From Squalus acanthias (Eukaryota), in assembly GCA_030390025.1 (NCBI GenBank), contig CM059425.1, positions 153,636,001-153,700,000 of the forward strand: a stretch of DNA of 64,000 nucleotides, in the 5' to 3' direction. The notes beneath the pieces were generated by a model. It made no database searches. It was not told the origin of the DNA and worked only from the letters and a program-made list of their open reading frames with translations. Positions 921-64,000 of the stretch are shown here, piece by piece (positions within the stretch are counted from its first letter, which is position 1; every line of letters begins with the position of its first letter). A program made the translations under genes and the position numbers.

Positions 921-1326
921 ACTCTCCTCTCCCTCTTCATGGTCAACCACTGGCTAGGCAGGCTGCATTTCTTGGGTGTGTGAAATGAGGAAGGCATAAG
1001 GGTGGAGTTGTGGTGAGGGGAGGGCGGGAAAGCAAGAGGTGCATGCCAGAAGGAGGATAATGTATGAGGATACCCGCATCTTGTATCCTTTCAGCCCTGC
1101 CGCTGACCAAGGGCTCAGCCATGCCCCTGCCAAGAATGACCTGCACCATCTCCTCCAAGGGGGTGAGGTGAGGCTAGGATTGGGAAGTGTGCCTCATGTT
1201 TTCTACATATTGTTGGTAGGCGAGTGATTTTGCGGGGCGGGGCGGGGGGGGAGTCGTGCATTGTGAAGTATGTGAGGCTAGTGGTGCAGTTGGTAGGAGA
1301 TGGCTTTTGAAGGTGTTTTCACTGAC

Positions 1327-1555
1327 ATTGACCACTGGTCTGAGGTCATGAAGCTTCTTAGGGCACTGGAGCCAAGTCGTGGGGGTGACATTGCTGGCAG
1401 TGACGGCCTCAGTGATCTGGTCCCACATCGTTCTTTCTGGAGGGCCTCCTGGCCCCTGTGGGTACAGGACCTCTCTTGCAGTGTTGACCCCCTGCACAAA
1501 GCTGGAGTGCTGCATGTGAGACACTGGGTGCCCCTTCCCTGGCTTGCTGAGCCAT
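1327..1555 (-). pseudogene. Harbinger Myb/SANT-like protein exon 1 (frameshifted)
   Basis: MAQQAR...VQGVNTAREVLYPQG...MWDQITEAVTASNVTPTTWLQCPKKLHDL, followed by donor GTCAGT; matches the trihelix W..I...V......R...QC.KK..DL pattern. Confidence 0.8.
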
Positions 1556-2102
1556 TTGTCTTAGTGCTGAAGCACTTTTCCCATTTTTTTAGGAGCAGAA
1601 GGGAACTCAGCTTTAAGAGCTGAAGACTCCAATTTCGGAATTATTTGTAACGTTAATTTTTTTTTCAGAAGACACTTGAGCTGTAAGTGCTAAAAACTTT
1701 TTATATGATTTTTATTTTTTTCATTTTAGAAGGCAGTTCCCCTTTAAGGGACTGACACTGCTTTCTGAAATGACAGCCTTGCTTTAAGCGAAAGCTGTTC
1801 TTGCTGCAATGACGCTACAGCCGCACTACATTGGGTCTCCTGCTGGGACTACCACCACGAAAACGGTCTTGCATGGTACGTTTAGCGCTGGGCTATTGTT
1901 AATTAGCAACCAGCACCAATATCCCAGTCCTGCCAGCGCCATTAATTTTGGCGGCCATTAACTCCAGCTCTCCAATTTTTAGCCCCTTGTATGGAATATG
2001 GTCGTAATAATGTTTATACTGGAATATTTGGAGTGCGCAGTGACATGAACATTTTGCACTGCCTCATGAAGCAAGTGAATGGTCTCTTTCATTATTCTCT
2101 AG

Positions 2103-2285
2103 GTGTATGGGGGGATGTTACAGGTTCAGTGCTTTTCAGCTGTAAAAGATGAGCTTCCCTGGTCTTCTGTTGTAGACTCTCTAGTTTTTCTGGTGCAATC
2201 CAGAGATCGCCCCATGTATGATCCAGACATAATTGTCGAGCCTGCCCACGGCTTAACATTAATCAACGCAGAGTCCTGGATCTAA
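2103..2285 (+). CDS. Probable last coding exon of an unidentified host gene (...VYGGMLQVQCFSAVKDELPWSSVVDSLVFLVQSRDRPMYDPDIIVEPAHGLTLINAESWI*)
   Basis: Pyrimidine-rich acceptor TCTCTTTCATTATTCTCTAG|G, then a 60-codon open frame to TAA in non-repetitive sequence with protein-like composition. Protein not recognised. Confidence 0.55.
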   Translation: MYGGMLQVQCFSAVKDELPWSSVVDSLVFLVQSRDRPMYDPDIIVEPAHGLTLINAESWI

Positions 2286-2619
2286 TGTCTTGTGGTGCTG
2301 TTGTGTGTGTGCTTCTGGTCCATCATGTCATTTTCAGCAGATACATTCCCTTCTTTAGAAATGCAGACAGTGCCTTAGAACAACTAATTGGCAGTGAATG
2401 TGGTAGACACATCTGTGAAGATTTGACAGGTGGGGACAATTTTCAACTGCTGGTGTACATCGCTTCGAATCTCATCAGAATGATAATGCCCTCAAATATA
2501 TTCACAGCTCCAGGTGCAGATTTGGGGCTGATTATAGTGGTGGGTGTGAAAAACATCATGCAAGTGTAATTTAAAAGCATTGGGACAATAGAGTAACAAG
2601 AATTCTGAAAGCCTTTAGA

Positions 2620-2927
2620 AATTCTCTAAAGGAGTGCTCCTCCAGGGCCCACAACCAAAGAACTGGCCTCCGCTGCCGCAGACTCAGCACCAGCACCCCC
2701 CACCTTCCACTTGTGAAACCTTGCGAGTTGGGCCCGGCAGCTGATCCCACCACTTACCTGCTGCCTCCGGGCCATGCAATTTTCCACCACTTCTTGCTAA
2801 CTCCCGCTCAGAACGGGTGGGAAATTGGCAAGCAGGATTTACATGAGGCCCGGGAGTTAAAGTACCTTGGCCTCATTTCTGGAGCAGTGGGTGAGTTTCT
2901 AACTGGGCTGGAGTTAAAATCGGACTG
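2620..2927. mobile_element. Half of a degenerate Harbinger MITE
   Basis: GGAGTGCTCCTCCAGGGCCCAC and CACTTACCTG motifs shared with other MITEs here; ends GAGTTAAAATCGG. Confidence 0.55.
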
Positions 2928-3424
2928 TTGGTGTTTAATATTGGATTTTACTATGTATAAACTGCAGATGTGTCATGTTTTACAATAAGACTGTTACAGA
3001 AGACAAAGCACTACTTTATTAATTTTACTACTGGCACAGAAAACAATTATGGAGACAGAACATTACATCTGAGGATTTACAAGACTTTACTAGCATGGTA
3101 TGCCTTTTGGAGAGGACTTATGTATATAACTATGTCGGTACGATATCTATCTCTGACGAAAACAGACATGAGATGGCATTATTCATGTTGTTTAATAGAC
3201 TCAGGAGTAGACTAGTGTTGAGGTGCAGTCATCCTCTCTTTATTTCCTCAGCCATTGAGCAATATTTCCTTAGTGCTCATCTGTCCTGCACAATTAATTA
3301 TTGTGTTGTAGTTTAGCTCCTGCAGCTCTTTTCAGATCTATAATTTGTGTCCTAGAACTGTCTGCAGTTCTGGACACTTGTTTATTTATTAACTTTCTGG
3401 ACAATGATGGTCTGTGATTTTCAG

Positions 3425-6408: not shown

Positions 6409-6660
6409 TATGATTTTGCTGCTCTTGTCCTTCTCATGGCACAAGTGGTGGGGTTTGGAGTTGTTGTCAAAGTAAATCGTCCACCCTGCCATCAGCTGTG
6501 TACCTGTGGGGGAAGGGATAGAGATTGAGACCCGAGGCAGGGGCGCTGATTAAGCAGATTGCTCTCTCCTGGGTGGTGTTGAGCACTGATCCAGGTCAGT
6601 GATGAGTATTCCCTCACATGCCTAACTTGAGTCTTGTAGATGGTGGAGGGGCTTTGAGAA

Positions 6661-6772
6661 AGAAAAGAAAGAATTGCATTTATATAGCTCCTTTCATGAC
6701 CACCTGATGTCCCAAAGCGTTTTACAGCCAGTGAAATACTTTTTGAAGTGTAGTCATTGTTTTAATGTAGGG
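6661..6772 (-). mobile_element. Deu-SINE (SacSINE1-like) 3' tail
   Basis: Reverse complement of the tail at 17700-17800. Confidence 0.75.
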
Positions 6773-7461
6773 ATGAGGAGATAAGCCACTGTTGCACAGT
6801 ATCCAGCCTCTGCCCTGCTCTTGTAGCCACAGTGTTGGTATGGCTGGTCCAGTTCATCATCTGATCAATGGTGGCTCCTAGAATGTTGATAGTTGAAGAC
6901 TCAGTGATGGTAGGTGCTGTTGAACATTAGGGGATGTAGTTGGGCCTTTCCTTGTTGGGGATGGTGATTGCCTGGTTCAGATTTGGTGCCAAACCTGGAT
7001 GTTGTCCATGTCCCAAGACATACCGTAGCTCATGAATGTTGTAGGATGACATGGGCTGCTTCAATTTGTGTGACCTCAGCCCTCACAGAAATTATGCGGT
7101 AACCAGGCGCTCCTCCCCTGCCAACCAGCGGTTATGGTTATGGCGCCTACCTGGTGGTCCAAGTCAGGATCAAGGCCTGAGCCCGCAAAGAGGAGCACAA
7201 CTTTCTTTTACATTTTTCAGTGCAGCCCCTTACAGAAGCATGGATGGCCGTGACTGGTATTGAAATGAAGGGGCCACCCTGCATCCTACAAACGAGCAGA
7301 CGTCCTGGGCAGATGCCTCAGCACGTATGCCAGAATGCACCACCCCGTGGATTTTCAGTGCCACAATTTAAAAGAAAACCTAGAGTTGGCCTGATGGATG
7401 GCGACACCAGCCGGTGTCGTATTAAGCCATACTGATGAGAAGGTGCGAAGCTCGATATATA

Positions 7462-29719: not shown

Positions 29720-32617
29720 AAACATAAGAACATATGAAATAGGAGCAAGAGAAGGCCATTCAGCCCTTTGAGCCTGCTCCCTCATTCAATAAGATCATGG
29801 CTGATCTTCTACCTCAACTCCACATTCCCACACTATCCTCATATCCCCTGATTCTCTTAGTATCCAAAAATCTATCAATCTCTGTCTTGAAAATACTCAA
29901 CGACTGACCATCCACAGCTCTCTGGGGTATAGAATTCCAAAGATGCACAACCCTTTCTCCTCATCTCAGCCCTAAATGGTTGACTCCTTATTCTGAGACT
30001 GTGACTCCTAGTTCTCGAATCCCCAGCCAGGGAAAATATCCTCCCAGCATCTTCCATGTCAAAGCCTGTAAGAATTTTATATGTTTCAATGAGATCACCT
30101 CTCATTCTTCTAAACTCTAGGGAGTATAGGCCTAGTCATCCTCACCAATCTGCCTGTCACAGAAGCATCTGTCCATGACAGTATTGGTAGCAGTGACCAC
30201 CGCACAGTCATTGTGGAGACGAAGTCCCGTCTTCACACTGAGGACACCCTTCATTGTGTTGTGTGGCACTACCACCATGCTAAATGGGATAGATTCAGAA
30301 CAGATCTAGCAGCTGAAAACTGGGCATCCATGAGGCATTGTGGGCCATCAGCAGCTGCAGAATTGTATTCCACCACAATCTGTAACCTCGTGGCCTGGCA
30401 TATCTCTCACTCTACCATTACCATCAAGCCAGGGGACCAACCCTGGTTCAATAAGGAGTGTAGAAGAGCATGCCAGGAGCAGCACCTGGCGTACCTAAAA
30501 ATGAGGTGCCAACCTGGGGAAGCTGCAACACAGGACTACATGCATGCTAAAAAGCGGAAGCAGCATGTTATAGACAGGGCTAAGCGATCGCACAATCAAC
30601 GGATCAGGTCAAAGCTCTGCAGTCCTGCCACATCCAATCGTGAATGGTGGTGGACCATTAAACAACTAACGGGAGGAGGAGGCTCCATGAATATCGTCAT
30701 CCTCAATGATGGAGGAGCCCAGCACGTGAGTGCAAAAGACAAGGCTGAAGCATTTGCAACCATCTTCAGCCAGAGGTGCCGAGTGGATGATCCATATCGG
30801 CCTCCTCCTGAGGTCCACACCATCACAGAAGTCAGCCTTCAGCCAATTCAATTCACTCCACGTGATTTCAAGAAACGGCTCAGCGCACTGGATACAGCAA
30901 AGGCTATGGGCCCTGACAACATCCCGGCTATCGTGCTGAAGACTTGTGCTCCAGAACTAGCCGCGCCTCTAGCCAAGCTATTCCGGCGCAGCTACAACAC
31001 TGGCATCTATCCGACAATGTGGAAAACTGCCCAGGTATGTCCTGTCCACAAAAAGCAGGACAAATCCAATCTGGCCAATTACCGCCCCATCAGTCTACTC
31101 TCAATCATCAGCAAAGTGATGGAAGGTGTCATCGACAGAGCTATCAAGCGGCACTTACTCACCTATAACCTGCTCACTCATGCCTAGTTTGGGTTCCGCC
31201 AAGACCACTCTGCTCCCGACCTCATTACAGCCTTGGTCCAAACATGGACAAACGAGCTGAATTCCAGAAGTGAGGTGAGAGTGACTGCCCTTGACATCAA
31301 GGCAGCATTTGACCGAGTGTGGCATGAAGGAGCCCTAGTAAAACTGAAGTCAATGGGAATCGGGGGGAAAACTCTCCACTGGCTGGAGTCATACCTAGCT
31401 CAAAGGAAGATGGTTGAAGGTCAATCATCACAGCCCCAGGACATCGCTGCAGGAGTTCCTCAGAGCAGTGTCCTAGGCCCAACCATCTTCAGCTGCTTCA
31501 TCAATGACCTTCCCTCCAACATAAGGTCAGAAATGGAGATGTTCGCTGATGACTGCACAGTGTTCAGTGCCATTCACAACTCCTCAGATAATGAAGCAGT
31601 CCATGCCCATATGCAACAAGACCTGGATGACGTTCAGGCTTGGGATGATAAGTGGCAGGTAACATTTGCGCCACATAAGTGCCAGGCAATGACTATCTCC
31701 AACAAGTGAGAGTCTAACCACCGCCCCTTGACATTCAATGGCATTACCATCGCCGAATCCCCCACCATCAACATCCTGGGGGTCACCATTGACCAGAAAT
31801 TTGACTGGACCAGCCACATAAATACTGTGGCAACAAGAGCAGGTCAGAGGCTGGGTATTCTGCGGCGAGTGTCTCACCTCCTGACTCCACAAAGCCTTTC
31901 TACCATCTACAAGCCACAAGTAAGGAGTGTGATGGAATACTCTCCACTTGCCTGGATGAGTGCAGCTACAACAACACTAAAGAAGCTCGATACCATCCAG
32001 GACAAAGCAGCCCACTTGATTGGCACCCCCTCTACCCCCTTAAACATTCACTCCCTCCACGACCGGAGTACCATGGATGCATTGTGTACCATCTATAAGA
32101 TGTACTGCAGCAAACCACCAAGGCTTCTTCGGCAGCACCTCCCAAACCCGTGACCTCTTCCACCTAGAAGGACAAGGGCAGCAGGTGCATGGGAATACCA
32201 CCACCTCCAAGTTCCCCTCCAAGTCACACACCATCCTGACTTAGAAGTATATCGTCGATCCTTCATCGTTGCTGGGTCAAAATCCTGGAACTCCCTGCCT
32301 AACAGCACTGTGGGAGTACCTTCACCACACGGACTGCAGCGGTTCAAGAAGGCGGCTCACCACCACCTTCTCAAGGGCAATTAGGGATAGGCAATAAATG
32401 CTGGCCTTGCCAGCGACGCCCACATCCCATAAACGAATAATTAAAAAAAAGTCTACTCAACCTCATCTCACAGGACAATCCTCTTATCCCAGGAATCAGT
32501 CTAGTGAACCTTTGCTGCACTCGCTCTAAGGCATGTATATCCTTCCTTAGGTAAGGAGACCAAAACTGTATACAGTACTCCAGGTGTGGTCTCACCAAGG
32601 CCCTATCTAATTGCAGT
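29720..32617 (-). mobile_element. CR1 3' fragment (29720-30137 + 32451-32617) interrupted by a + strand LINE
   Basis: RGDLIETYKIL and VRPHLEYCIQFWSPY in the two halves, which join across the insert with an AGTC-like duplication. Confidence 0.9.
30138..32450 (+). mobile_element. CR1/L2-group LINE, 5'-truncated: APE C-terminus, RT and 3' tail
   Basis: DSIGSSDHRTV; KAMGPDNIP; NYRPISLLS; DIKAAFDRVWH; GVPQSSVLGP; FADDC; few stops; tail GCAATAAATGCTGGCC...A-rich. Confidence 0.95.
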
Positions 32618-45299: not shown

Positions 45300-46290
45300 G
45301 AAACAATGTGTTCTCAGAATGTAGGTGATTCTGGCAAAGCCCCATTTATTGCTCATCTCTAGTTGTCTTGAGAAGATAGTGGTGGTCCTTCTCCTTGAAT
45401 CGCTGCAGTCCTTGTGGTGATGGTGCTCCACTGTGGTATTAGGGAGGGAATTGCAGAATTCTGACCCAGCAGGAACAGAGATGTATGCCAAGTCAGGATG
45501 GCATGTGACTTGAAGGGGAACTTGGAGGTGACGGTGTTCCCACAACATTGCTTCTCTTGTTCTCCCTGGTGGTAGAGGTTGCAAGGTTGGGAGATGCTGT
45601 TGAAGTAACCTTGGTGAGTTTCTGCAGTAGATCATAGATACTGCAGCCACAGTGCGACAATGGTGGGGGAGATGGATATTGAGTCCATTGGCAGGGGTAC
45701 CAATCAAGTGAACTGCTCTGTCCTGGATGATGTCAAACTTCTTGAGTGTTGTTGCAGCCTCACCCATTCAGGTGAGTATTCCATTACACTTCTGACAATC
45801 CTTGTAGGTGGGTGAGTGGCTTTGAATGGTCAGGAGGTGAGCCACTCATCTCTGAGTACGGAGCCTCTGTCCTGCTGTTGTAGCCACAGTATTGATATGG
45901 CCAATATGTTCAGTTAGCTCCTGGTCAATGCTGAGGACTCCCAGGGCCTCTTCCACCCAACTCTGCCTCCACCTCTGGTGGGTCTATCTTGTCGGTGGGA
46001 CAGGACATACCCAGGGATGGTGATGGAGGAATCTTGGATGTTGACAGAGAGATATAATTCTGCGAATATGACTATGTCAGGTTGTTGCTTAAATAGACTG
46101 TGGGATAGTTATTCCAACTTGGCCACAGCCCCCAGATGTTAGTGATGAGGACTTCTCAGGGTTGAAATTGCCTTAGTCTCATTCTAGTACGTTGCCTGGG
46201 TCGTTCCCAATAGGTCGGTCTGATTTTCTTATTGAACTTCGTAGCAAATGTTTACAACTGGGGGGATTGCTAGTCCACTTCAGAGGGTAA
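45300..46290 (-). mobile_element. Internally deleted copy of the SINE-headed LINE (5' part and APE start fused to RT end and tail)
   Basis: 45300-45930 matches 31787-32440 (reverse complement); 45924-46290 matches 63060-63459 (reverse complement); shared GTCAATG at the junction. Confidence 0.8.
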
Positions 46291-55328: not shown

Positions 55329-55932
55329 CCCGACTGTATACCACTGTGCCGCCACCTCTGGTGGGTCTGTCCTGCCGGTGGGACAGGACATACCCAGGGA
55401 TGGTGATGAAGGAGTCTGGGACATTGGCTGAAAGCTATGATTCTGTGAGTATGATTATGTCAGGCTGTTGTGTGATTAGTCTGTGGGACTAGTCTGTGGG
55501 ACAGATCTCCCAATGCTGTCACAAGTCCCCAGATGTTAGTGAGGAGTACTTTGCAGGGTCGACTGGGCTAGGTGTGCCTTTGTCGTGTCCAAAACTGATG
55601 CCTAGGTCGATGCCGGGTGGTCTGTCCGGTTTTATTCCTATTATTGTTTTTCGTAGTGGTTTGGTATAACTGAGTGGGCCAAACAAGGCTAATAGCTTGC
55701 TAGACCATTTCAGAGGGAACCATATTGCAGTGGGTCTGCAGTCACATATAGGCCAGACCAGGTAAGGATGGCAGATTTCCTTCCCTAAAGGTCATTAGTG
55801 AACCAGATGGGCTTTTATGACAATTCGGTAGTTTCATGTTCACCATTATTGATATTAGCCTTTTGTTCCAGATTTATTTGTGGTCTACTCAGATCATTAG
55901 TCCAGGCCTCTGGGTTACTGGTCCAGTAACAT
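55329..55932 (-). mobile_element. 5' part of the SINE-headed LINE (head, Meta-like domain, APE start)
   Basis: Colinear reverse complement of ~62795-63425; the B-box segment is deleted in this copy. Confidence 0.85.
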
Positions 55933-56926
55933 ACTTCCTTTCTGATTTGACTGCAGGTAACGAATGCATCACAAATTCTTCAACAAGCACCTTAAAAAGA
56001 CCTAACAAGCAAAGGATAGCAGTTTTACTCGTTTTTCTCCAATTTGTGTTAACCATTTTTGGAGGGGTAGAAATGGTCGGAACAGCACAAATGAATACCT
56101 CTTCAACACTTTCTACCTACATTACATCCACTTTTTGCTCACATCTACTTTTTAAATTAGTGAAAGCAACAATTTCAGTGCCTAGGTAGATTTGTCAAAT
56201 GTCTTTTCAAGTCTTACCCAGAACAATTATATGAACAAGGATTAATATTTATGAACGGTAGAGTTATGAAAAAAATGCAAAAATCAAGCAAGGATTTGTT
56301 ATCACTAGTGACTTTCGATTTTCATTTTCATTGTTACTAACTATATCCCATGATGACAACGCTCTCTTTCCGTCATTCAAAATGTTTCATTCCATGCTCC
56401 ATCAAGAGCTGGCACTCATGCTGTAGAACACATCAATAAGGACGAATAACTCAAAGTTTTACAGTGAAAATGAGTATAAAGCAATGTATATTTCCAAAGA
56501 CCAACAATGTAAAAGTCCTTACATCTAAATTTTTATTTTGTTATTTTTATAAATTATATATGCTTTGTGCTTTTTAAATTGTGCCTCCTAAGGCTAGCAT
56601 ATTAAAATATGGCATTAGCAAATAGTCAAAACATGCCATTACACTCAATGATAAATTAACTATAGTTATTGTTGAGAGGGGTCATTAGGCTTGATTGATG
56701 AAAAAATATATTAACATATGTTCACACTGTGTTCGAATGATAGTATTAACTTTCACATAATTTGCCGCATACAATATTTTGCTAATGAATTTTGTCAGCT
56801 AAAAGGTTGGATGAAATGTTATGATGATACAACTAAACGTTACTTTTGCACTAGAATTTCCTGTCAGGCACTTCTGATTGTCACACTATGACCTTTTTGG
56901 TTACTGCAACAACTCATAGAATCATA

Positions 56927-61915: not shown

Positions 61916-62151
61916 ATATGTTGGAGATTGCCAAAAAAAACAGAACCAGGGAACAGGCTCAAGCTAAGAAGAGGAAAGGTACACATACAGATTTTTTAGG
62001 CAGAGGGTGGTGAAACACATAAACATTTGGGATAGATTTTCCAGGTATGGAGTGGAGGCAGGTAGTGTGAAAAATTTAAAGGAGAATTGGATAAATATTT
62101 GAAGGAGTGCGGAATTGAAAGGTATTAGTTCTTGAGCCCATTTTGTGGCAG

Positions 62152-62772
62152 CCATAGGAACATAGAACATAGGAACAGGAGTAGGTCATTTAGCCCCTCG
62201 AGCCTGTTCCGCCGTTCAATGAGATCATGGCTGATCTGTGACCTAACTCCATATACCCGCCTTTGCCCCATATCCTTAATAATTTTGGTTAACAAAAATA
62301 TATCAATCCCAGATTTAAAATTAACAATTGATATAGCATCAATTGCCATTTGCGGAAGAGAGTTCCATAGGTCTACCACCCTTTGTGTGGAGAAATGTTC
62401 CTAATTTCACTCCTGAAAGGTCTGACTCTAAATTTTAGACTCCACAACCAGCGGAAATAGTTTCTCTCTATCTACCATATCTGTTCCCCTTAATATCTTG
62501 AAAACTACAATCAAATCACCCCTTAACCTTTTAAATTCCAGGGAATACAACCCTAGTTTGTGTAATCTCTCCTCATAATTTAACCCTTGGATTCCAGGCA
62601 TCATTCTGGTAAACCTACGCTGCACTCCCTCTAAGGCCAATACATCCTTCCTAAGGTGTGGTGCCCAGAACTGCTCGCAGTACTCCAGGTGTGGTCTAAC
62701 CAGGGCTTTGTATAACTGAAGCATGGCTTCTACCCCCTTGTATTCTAGTCCTCTAGATATAAAGGCTAGCAT
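62152..62772 (-). mobile_element. CR1 3' fragment
   Basis: LVRPHLEYCEQFWAPH...RLRGDLI, plus tail. Confidence 0.93.
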
Positions 62773-62774
62773 CT

Positions 62775-63592
62775 GGGAATGGTAATATAGTGATTATGTT
62801 ACTGGACCAGTAATCAAGAGGCCTGGATTAATGATCCTGAGAGACATGAGTTCAAATCCCACCATAGCAGCTAGGGAATTTAAATTCAGTTAATTAAATA
62901 AATCTGGAATACAAAAGCTAGTATCTGTAATGGTGAACATGAAACTATCAGATTGTCGCAAAAACCCACCTGGTTCACTAATGTCCTTTAGGGAAGGAAA
63001 TCTGCCACCCTTACCCAGTCTGGCCTATATGTGACTCCAGACCCACAGCAATCTGGATCCCTCTGAAATGGCCTAGCAAGCTATTAGCCTTTATGGCCCA
63101 CTCATTTGTAAGAAACTGCTACGAGAAACAATAATAAGAACAAAACCAGACGGACCACACGGCATCGACCTAGGCACCAGACATGACAACGGCACACCCA
63201 GCCCAGTCAACCCTACAAAGTCCTCCTCACTAACATCTGGGGACTTATGCCAAAATTGGGAGAGCTGTCCCACAGACTAGTCAAGGAACAGCCTGACATA
63301 GTCATACTCACAGAATCATACCTTTCAGCCAATGTCCTAGACTCCTACATCCCGATCCCTGGGTCTATCCTGTCCCACTGGCAGGACAGACCCACCAGAG
63401 GTGGCGGCACAGTGGTATACAGTTGGGAGGGAATGGCCCTGGGAGTCCTCAACATTGACACCGGACCCCATGAAGTCTCATGGCTTCAGGTCAAGCTTGG
63501 GCAAGGAAACCTCCTGCTGATTACCATCTACTGCCCTCCCTCAGCTGTTGAATCAGTACTCCTCCATGTTGATCACCACTTGGAAGAAGCAC
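62775..63592 (+). mobile_element. 5' end of the SINE-headed LINE: tRNA-like head, Meta-like domain and APE endonuclease N-terminus
   Basis: Decayed A box ~62783-62793; B box GAGTTCAAATCCC at 62848-62860; central domain 62951-63050; KVLLTNIWGLMPKLGEL...PDIVILTESYL...DRPTRGGGTVVY. Confidence 0.85.
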
Positions 63593-64000
63593 TGTAAAAT
63601 TCGCAAATTATCGCGATTCAAAAATAATGAGAGAGAGATACAGTTTCGTTCAAGTAGTTTTATTTCAGCGAAATGCTGTCATGTTTCAAAACGGACACAA
63701 GAAGCCTGTAAAATGGCCGCCGCACCTCGTGGCAGAAGTTTCTAGAATTTTCAGTAGACAGACAAGATGGCGTTCGAATAAACATTTCAGAGTAAGATTG
63801 GATAATACTCTGCAAACATTGGTAAAGACAGGATGCAACCTGTCTGCATTCGACACAATAGCAAAGATATAAGTGCTGGAATCGTTTTCCATGTACAAGT
63901 GAGGACTATTGTACTGGGCAATCAGAGGCCCATCCAAAAGACATCAATACGCAAATTCCCCGCAGCTCTACAATGAGAGAGCCATTCGCGGGTGCTTACA
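63593..64000. mobile_element. Possible short LTR inserted in the APE ORF
   Basis: The LINE frame breaks at TGTAA; the window ends TTACA; CpG retained; AAGATGGCG motif; TSD cannot be checked. Confidence 0.35.

Follow-up and report, generated by a model that had tools for sequence, protein, structure and literature searches.

The window, a 64,000-nt stretch of Squalus acanthias DNA, contains copies of a ~3.3-kb element that consists of a tRNA-like head, a 5′ UTR of ~330 nt, a single APE-RT frame and a poly-A tail. We propose, with a probability of roughly 60%, that this element is an autonomous Zenon LINE that RNA polymerase III (Pol III) is likely to transcribe and that sheds SINEs. Zenon is a LINE family that is abundant in sharks and rays.

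The copy at 62775-63594, whose features all lie on the forward strand, is a broken front end that corresponds to the first 818 nt of the element. The tRNA-derived head occupies 62775-62866 at the 5′ end and comprises an A box, an anticodon-like arm, an extra hairpin at the position of the variable arm and a T arm that contains the B box. As an earlier, sequence-only reading had noticed, the A box (62783-62793, recognized by its sequence) is decayed in this copy and is followed at 62848-62860 by the B box GAGTTCAAATCCC, which is identified by its sequence and by the pattern across heads. Within the 5′ UTR, a conserved central block spans 62954-63082; it is not a Meta domain and is also kept in SINE-sized derivatives. 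An A-rich spacer and an 83-nt leader (63120-63216, with ACA at 63140 in this copy) lead to the APE endonuclease start of the single APE-RT frame at 63217-63594, which matches the family frame at 85% and the Pfam Exo_endo_phos model with an E value of 0.007 (2.5e-10 in copy L041). The block quoted in the earlier reading is present at 62954-63052, and the APE motif VLLTNIWGL lies at 63220, 168 nt past that block and 445 nt from the 5′ end; in the family, APE lies 441 nt from that end. This position confirms that there is no room for ORF1 upstream of APE.

What defines 62775 as the 5′ end of the element? In an alignment of 37 heads, the first inner columns agree at 80-90% and the ten upstream columns at no more than ~40%. 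The A box begins 8 nt inside this end, a spacing shared with Pol III units. On the other side, the window copy is interrupted after 63594 by another repeat (63595-63700), which also abuts sequence in another locus, L030 (78%, 109 nt). CR1-type LINE 3′ ends on the reverse strand flank the Zenon copy at 62150-62772 of the window and do so at many other places, and the host CR1 frames in the retrieved loci represent several families.

A search of the 3.7-Gb host genome with 62775-63250 as the query yielded 10,940 first-look candidates, 40 of which were scored and 30 retrieved. Twenty-six of the 29 non-self loci begin within nt 1-4 of the element, and in none of the 29 does the match extend beyond the 5′ end by more than 25 nt. 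Likewise, 26 of the 29 run on in the same strand into the 3′ body, and copies of the head-APE junction thus do continue toward RT. Longer stretches were taken for 20 of these loci, mostly ones running into the body, and 14 of the 20 reach an A tail: six at 3,252-3,308 nt, six shortened by deletions and two lengthened by insertions. All 14 copies that have both ends finish in A-rich sequence, which indicates a poly-A tail and not a microsatellite tail, and no target-site duplications were seen by eye in them. To guard against a bias from choosing copies by their heads, 29 copies were picked by APE alone. Nine of them reach the first 14 nt of the element, three reach the tRNA part and 17 are cut further in. 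No two of these 29 copies share adjoining sequence (one flank consists of N), and they therefore reveal no second 5′ end and no ORF1. An upstream ORF1 or a longer 5′ UTR is rejected, as neither occurs in any head-selected or APE-selected genome copy. A SINE inserted by chance in front of a 5′-truncated LINE could produce the same order of parts, and short elements made of head and tail are indeed common. However, the junction is identical at dozens of loci on many contigs, and no SINE tail or poly-A separates the head from APE; such nesting is refuted by the copies and is almost certainly not the explanation. The earlier proposal of a ~3.3-kb autonomous LINE with a tRNA-derived A/B-box head and one APE-RT frame, without ORF1, is supported.

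The window contains further copies. On the reverse strand, 55329-55933 contains a head fragment without the B box, the central block and the APE start (element nt 21-62 and 120-651). The junction was said to recur at 55329-55932, and it does so at 86%, but this copy has neither the B box nor the initial 20 nt. An old, 73%-identical copy without a tRNA head lies at 45310-46287, also on the reverse strand, and joins nt 294-683 to nt 2642-3301 through an internal deletion. Its portion at 45924-46287 begins at element nt 294; the region at ~45930-46290 had been read as tying the head-APE junction to the RT and tail, but on its own this copy does not display a head-APE junction. Because this copy is only 73% alike and headless, it makes a weak link to RT, and the genome copies instead connect the head to the RT and tail. 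A 5′-truncated copy of the same family on the forward strand (30136-32463; 95%) covers element nt 994-3329, from the end of APE through RT and the 3′ UTR to the poly-A, and has no TTTT in 2,293 sense nt. An older head-bearing subfamily was sought from the 73% copy and from a copy at 6472-7070, and only the main family or short pieces were returned; no close relative of the 73% copy appeared among 40 scored matches.

The element was already catalogued: judged by sequence identity, it is the elasmobranch Zenon LINE listed at full length in PMC13343379. That study presents Zenon LINEs from five elasmobranchs, the coelacanth and the hagfish, all without ORF1 and all poly-A tailed, and its elasmobranch set comprises SquAca_Zenon-1, -2 and -3 and the CarCar, ScyCan, RhiTyp and HypSab Zenon-1 consensuses. 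In a comparison by eye over the first 400 nt of each supplement row, SquAca_Zenon-1 is a near letter-for-letter match to the window family, and the elasmobranch consensuses display no sequence difference from it in this visible part. SquAca_Zenon-1 measures 3,314 nt, compared with 3,252-3,308 nt for the window family, and the elasmobranch Zenons share with it a single ORF, the lack of ORF1 and a poly-A tail. The Zenon assignment is based on this identity with the published consensuses. A FastTree RT tree, which holds no named Zenon, places the family apart from host CR1 and among unnamed relatives; the best named RT matches are lancelet and lepidopteran proteins, and the APE-side protein search gave three matches only. 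Since all the Zenon elements in PMC13343379 lack ORF1, the lack of ORF1 is not special to this element, and there is no evidence for the earlier idea that the central block replaces ORF1.

The LINE itself is thus known, whereas searches of the open literature turned up no description of its tRNA head, its avoidance of T runs or its SINE offspring. The words tRNA, polymerase, promoter and start codon have no occurrence in the main text of PMC13343379, and the accessible part of that paper makes no mention of SINE derivatives of elasmobranch Zenon. Searches of the open literature for a Pol III-driven or tRNA-headed LINE likewise yielded nothing relevant; Repbase, Dfam, SINEBase, subscription journals or bioRxiv supplements may describe these features. 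The same head opens the published consensuses of all five elasmobranch species, with the A and B boxes kept (by eye), and its extra hairpin carries two compensatory stem changes across them (by eye). Neither the hagfish row nor the coelacanth row, both of which are poorly resolved, has it within the first 400 nt. In 163 metagenome, viral and MAG loci, the best blastn match to the head or central block had an E value of 0.33, viral contigs gave no match and a relaxed ARAGORN search gave noise. Many bacterial and archaeal MAG records (L294-L373) carry intact eukaryotic LINE frames that represent host contamination.

The family-majority head aligns colinearly, and best, to the host tRNA-Ser(AGA), with a z value of 7.0 that exceeds all 500 shuffles. 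The alignment score of 45 compares with a maximum of 33.5 among 79 other windows of the element. The tRNA derivation suggested by the sequence-only reading is thereby borne out for the family, with a weak signal per copy: the Rfam tRNA model matches the head in 6 of 20 copies at 22-28 bits (gathering cut-off 29), with no match elsewhere in 69 kb and none in the decayed window copy, and ARAGORN calls a tRNA at the head in 2 of 28 copies. The A-box pattern is intact in 21 of 37 heads, the B-box pattern in 26 and both in 16. The head does not fold better than shuffled sequences, and its acceptor stem is unpaired. As the head was compared with host tRNAs of eight ARAGORN labels, which sample few isotypes, tRNA-Ser(AGA) is a tentative donor. 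In BivaCORE-SINE1, a bivalve SINE (PMC4824008 supplement), the anticodon-like loop of the head is identical to that of the shark head and the variable region is likewise long, which hints at a similar tRNA-Ser-type donor. Three host contigs (C889, C2208 and C29) contain long tandem arrays of tRNA genes (Ser, Lys) with a spacing of ~1.7 kb.

Pol III terminates at runs of four or more T residues in vertebrates. The sense strand of the family majority contains no TTTT (3.96 expected, P 0.016) and only seven TTT runs (20.3 expected, P 0.0003), and runs of A, C or G are not depleted. When codon usage and amino acids are fixed, TTT is still depleted (5 versus 11.4 expected, P 0.005), and the absence of TTTT is not significant (0 versus 1.9 expected, P 0.11). 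In 15 Zenon copy segments, TTTT occurs 10 times against 59.6 expected, a 42-kb count that is not independent because the copies share one ancestor; in 19 host CR1 segments it occurs 85 times against 60.9 expected. Thirteen of the 15 TTTT positions in full copies are private. A comparison set of 163 related loci from public contigs provided 99 frames of at least 600 codons, with a median TTTT ratio of 1.23 and a lowest TTT ratio of 0.66, compared with 0.28-0.42 in the Zenon family. As a point against the Pol III reading, the TTTT ratio falls below 0.3 in two of the 99, in which no head was seen, one of them lacking its 5′ end. Two distant LINE frames from eukaryote DNA in MAG records (L342:3929-5977 and L295:34-2893) have one TTTT against 9.6 and 3.9 expected, respectively, and neither displays an A/B box pattern, L295 being without its 5′ end. 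The depletion of sense T4+ runs, which had been put forward as a sign of Pol III read-through, is thus present in the family and favours such read-through. Taken together, the tRNA-like promoter boxes and the missing terminator runs make it likely that the element is produced by Pol III.

Alternatively, Pol II may transcribe the element from its 5′ UTR or by read-through, and the head would then be a captured tRNA or SINE relic whose A and B boxes are TFIIIC sites only or serve the SINE derivatives. T runs may have been lost in that case through premature 3′-end signals, RNA decay or RT slippage. All characterized APE-type LINEs are taken as Pol II units (PMC5786205), and the elements derived from Zenon in Lepidoptera lack a Pol III promoter (PMC6740152), which means that a Zenon without ORF1 can do without it. 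The nonsignificant absence of TTTT at fixed codon usage also accords with Pol II, and a capped RNA would account for translation. However, the host CR1 LINEs are under the same Pol II constraints and have no T-run loss, the 5′ end is spaced from the A box as in Pol III units, and both boxes persist across five species. We therefore consider transcription by Pol II less likely.

How would a Pol III transcript be translated? The majority of 14 copies contains one stop-free frame of 973 codons. In 44 head-bearing loci, shared variants have a pN/pS of 0.19 (30 synonymous and 19 not), compared with 0.84 for private variants (P 6e-7). Purifying selection thus acted on this frame while the lineages carried the head, and the head-bearing masters needed their own protein. 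The first in-frame Met is located at codon 287, with no earlier in-frame AUG. At the leader start, 83 nt before APE and behind the A-rich spacer, 20 of 50 copies have ATG and 28 have ATA, and this site is out of frame with APE in 45 of the 50. The upstream ATG, which is also present in six of the seven published elasmobranch heads (PMC13343379), would suit a Pol II transcript, but 30 of 50 copies have lost it, and it does not lie in the APE frame. A programmed -1 frameshift from the upstream ATG was considered, given that the offset is retained in 45 of the 50 copies, and is not supported: most copies carry ATA at the site, no slippery heptamer is evident, and the shared leader variants, although few (n = 6), are synonymous in the APE frame in five of six cases and in the ATG frame in one of six. 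We infer a non-AUG translation start from these sequences.

The lack of an in-frame AUG near the 5′ end can also be accommodated by a division of labour, in which the Pol III RNA is copied, the protein comes from a distinct Pol II transcript or from a rare helper that has a different 5′ end, and the head-bearing copies are mobilized in trans. Such dual use would reconcile the T-run loss with the need for translation. However, no other 5′ end was found in the 29 APE-selected copies, and the purifying selection on their frame means that the head-bearing lineages depended on their own protein, which makes dual use improbable.

The sequence-only reading had compared the central block to the conserved domain of MetaSINEs and proposed that the LINE had captured a MetaSINE as its promoter or was a LINE-side source of the Meta domain. 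In the MetaSINE superfamily (PMC4824008), a tRNA-derived head is likewise followed by a conserved block, and Zenon LINEs mobilize Meta SINEs in bivalves (PMC11481361). However, the Meta domain is 66 nt long and directly follows the tRNA part, whereas the block in the shark element lies ~90 nt past it; in addition, MetaSINEs are short and non-coding, whereas the shark element is 3.3 kb long with a selected ORF. By eye, the block is unlike both the Meta consensus in print and the Meta members from hagfish and bivalves (PMC7245038 and PMC4824008), and the head copies in the window, scanned for two core Meta motifs with as many as two mismatches allowed, contain neither. Since a Meta domain is not supported, neither proposal is supported, and we regard both as very improbable. 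By eye, the Deu domain shares 10 nt with the block at the Deu start and no likeness thereafter, and the UCON3 rows and the bivalve CORE rows are unlike it. A conserved structure or IRES was sought in the block, and its predicted fold varies by window and copy, with a z value of -2.4 in one window of copy L043 and +1.1 in the window copy. We interpret the central block as part of the Zenon 5′ UTR.

In addition to full-length copies, the family has numerous SINE-sized derivatives. Seventeen of 28 non-window loci picked by the central block are deletion elements of 261-524 nt that retain head and tail and have no ORF. They combine a tRNA-derived head with A and B boxes and a 3′ tail common to the partner LINE. 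The 260-520-nt elements (L132-L158, L116 and L120) have more than 10 different junctions, some of which are shared (element nt 345/3190 in three loci and 328/3209 in two), which points to several SINE subfamilies in the making. For two other organisms, 39-53 contigs depart from the element at nt ~327 and resume at the last ~70 nt of the tail; on this junction pattern they would represent one fixed-junction SINE family there, and they are silent on the strand, start or level of transcription. That junction has no exact match in the Squalus acanthias genome.

These derivatives resemble Persaeus, a SIDE of lepidopteran Zenon (PMC6740152), in which an ORF1-less CR1-group parent likewise sheds internal-deletion derivatives that retain its 5′ and 3′ parts. 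Persaeus has neither tRNA homology nor a Pol III promoter, whereas the shark derivatives carry the tRNA head and thus qualify as SINEs. A small-RNA head joined to LINE 5′ and 3′ parts is also the plan of Bov-tA, AfroSINE and other RTE/Vingi-type SINEs (PMC5786205). In that type, the head was added after the LINE deletion, and only RTE and Vingi supply bodies; in shark Zenon, by contrast, the protein-coding LINE already has the head, and a single deletion gives rise to a SINE. Zenons also mobilize bivalve SINEs (PMC11481361), and the shark SINEs described in PMC3747384 (HE1, SacSINE1 and SINE2-1_CM) have other partner LINEs.

In the mechanism that we propose for Zenon, TFIIIC would bind the A and B boxes, and Pol III would read through 3.3 kb to the A tail because T4+ terminators have been purged. 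The uncapped RNA would be translated by a non-canonical route, perhaps with the aid of the central block or the A-rich leader. The LINE protein would then bind the 3′ stem-loop and use target-primed reverse transcription to insert copies. Elements that lose internal sequence but retain both head and tail would become SINEs at once, as they would already carry a Pol III promoter. We know of no natural precedent for a translated Pol III RNA of 3.3 kb. The full scheme, a protein-coding and self-mobilizing Zenon with a 3.3-kb Pol III RNA, uncapped AUG-less translation and a standing supply of SINEs, is tentative, at slightly less than even odds.

LINEs and SINEs are usually divided into Pol II mRNAs and Pol III non-coding RNAs, respectively. 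If our proposal is true, a LINE with an ORF under selection would be driven by a type 2 Pol III promoter and would provide a natural case of a long Pol III RNA that is translated, and Zenon would be a compact retroelement of 3.3 kb with one protein and an unusual translation start. The birth of SINEs by ORF deletion would be a one-step process, unlike that of the head-capture model, with many intermediate stages in one genome. The promoter boundary between LINEs and SINEs would be erased, and new SINE families would arise by single deletions.
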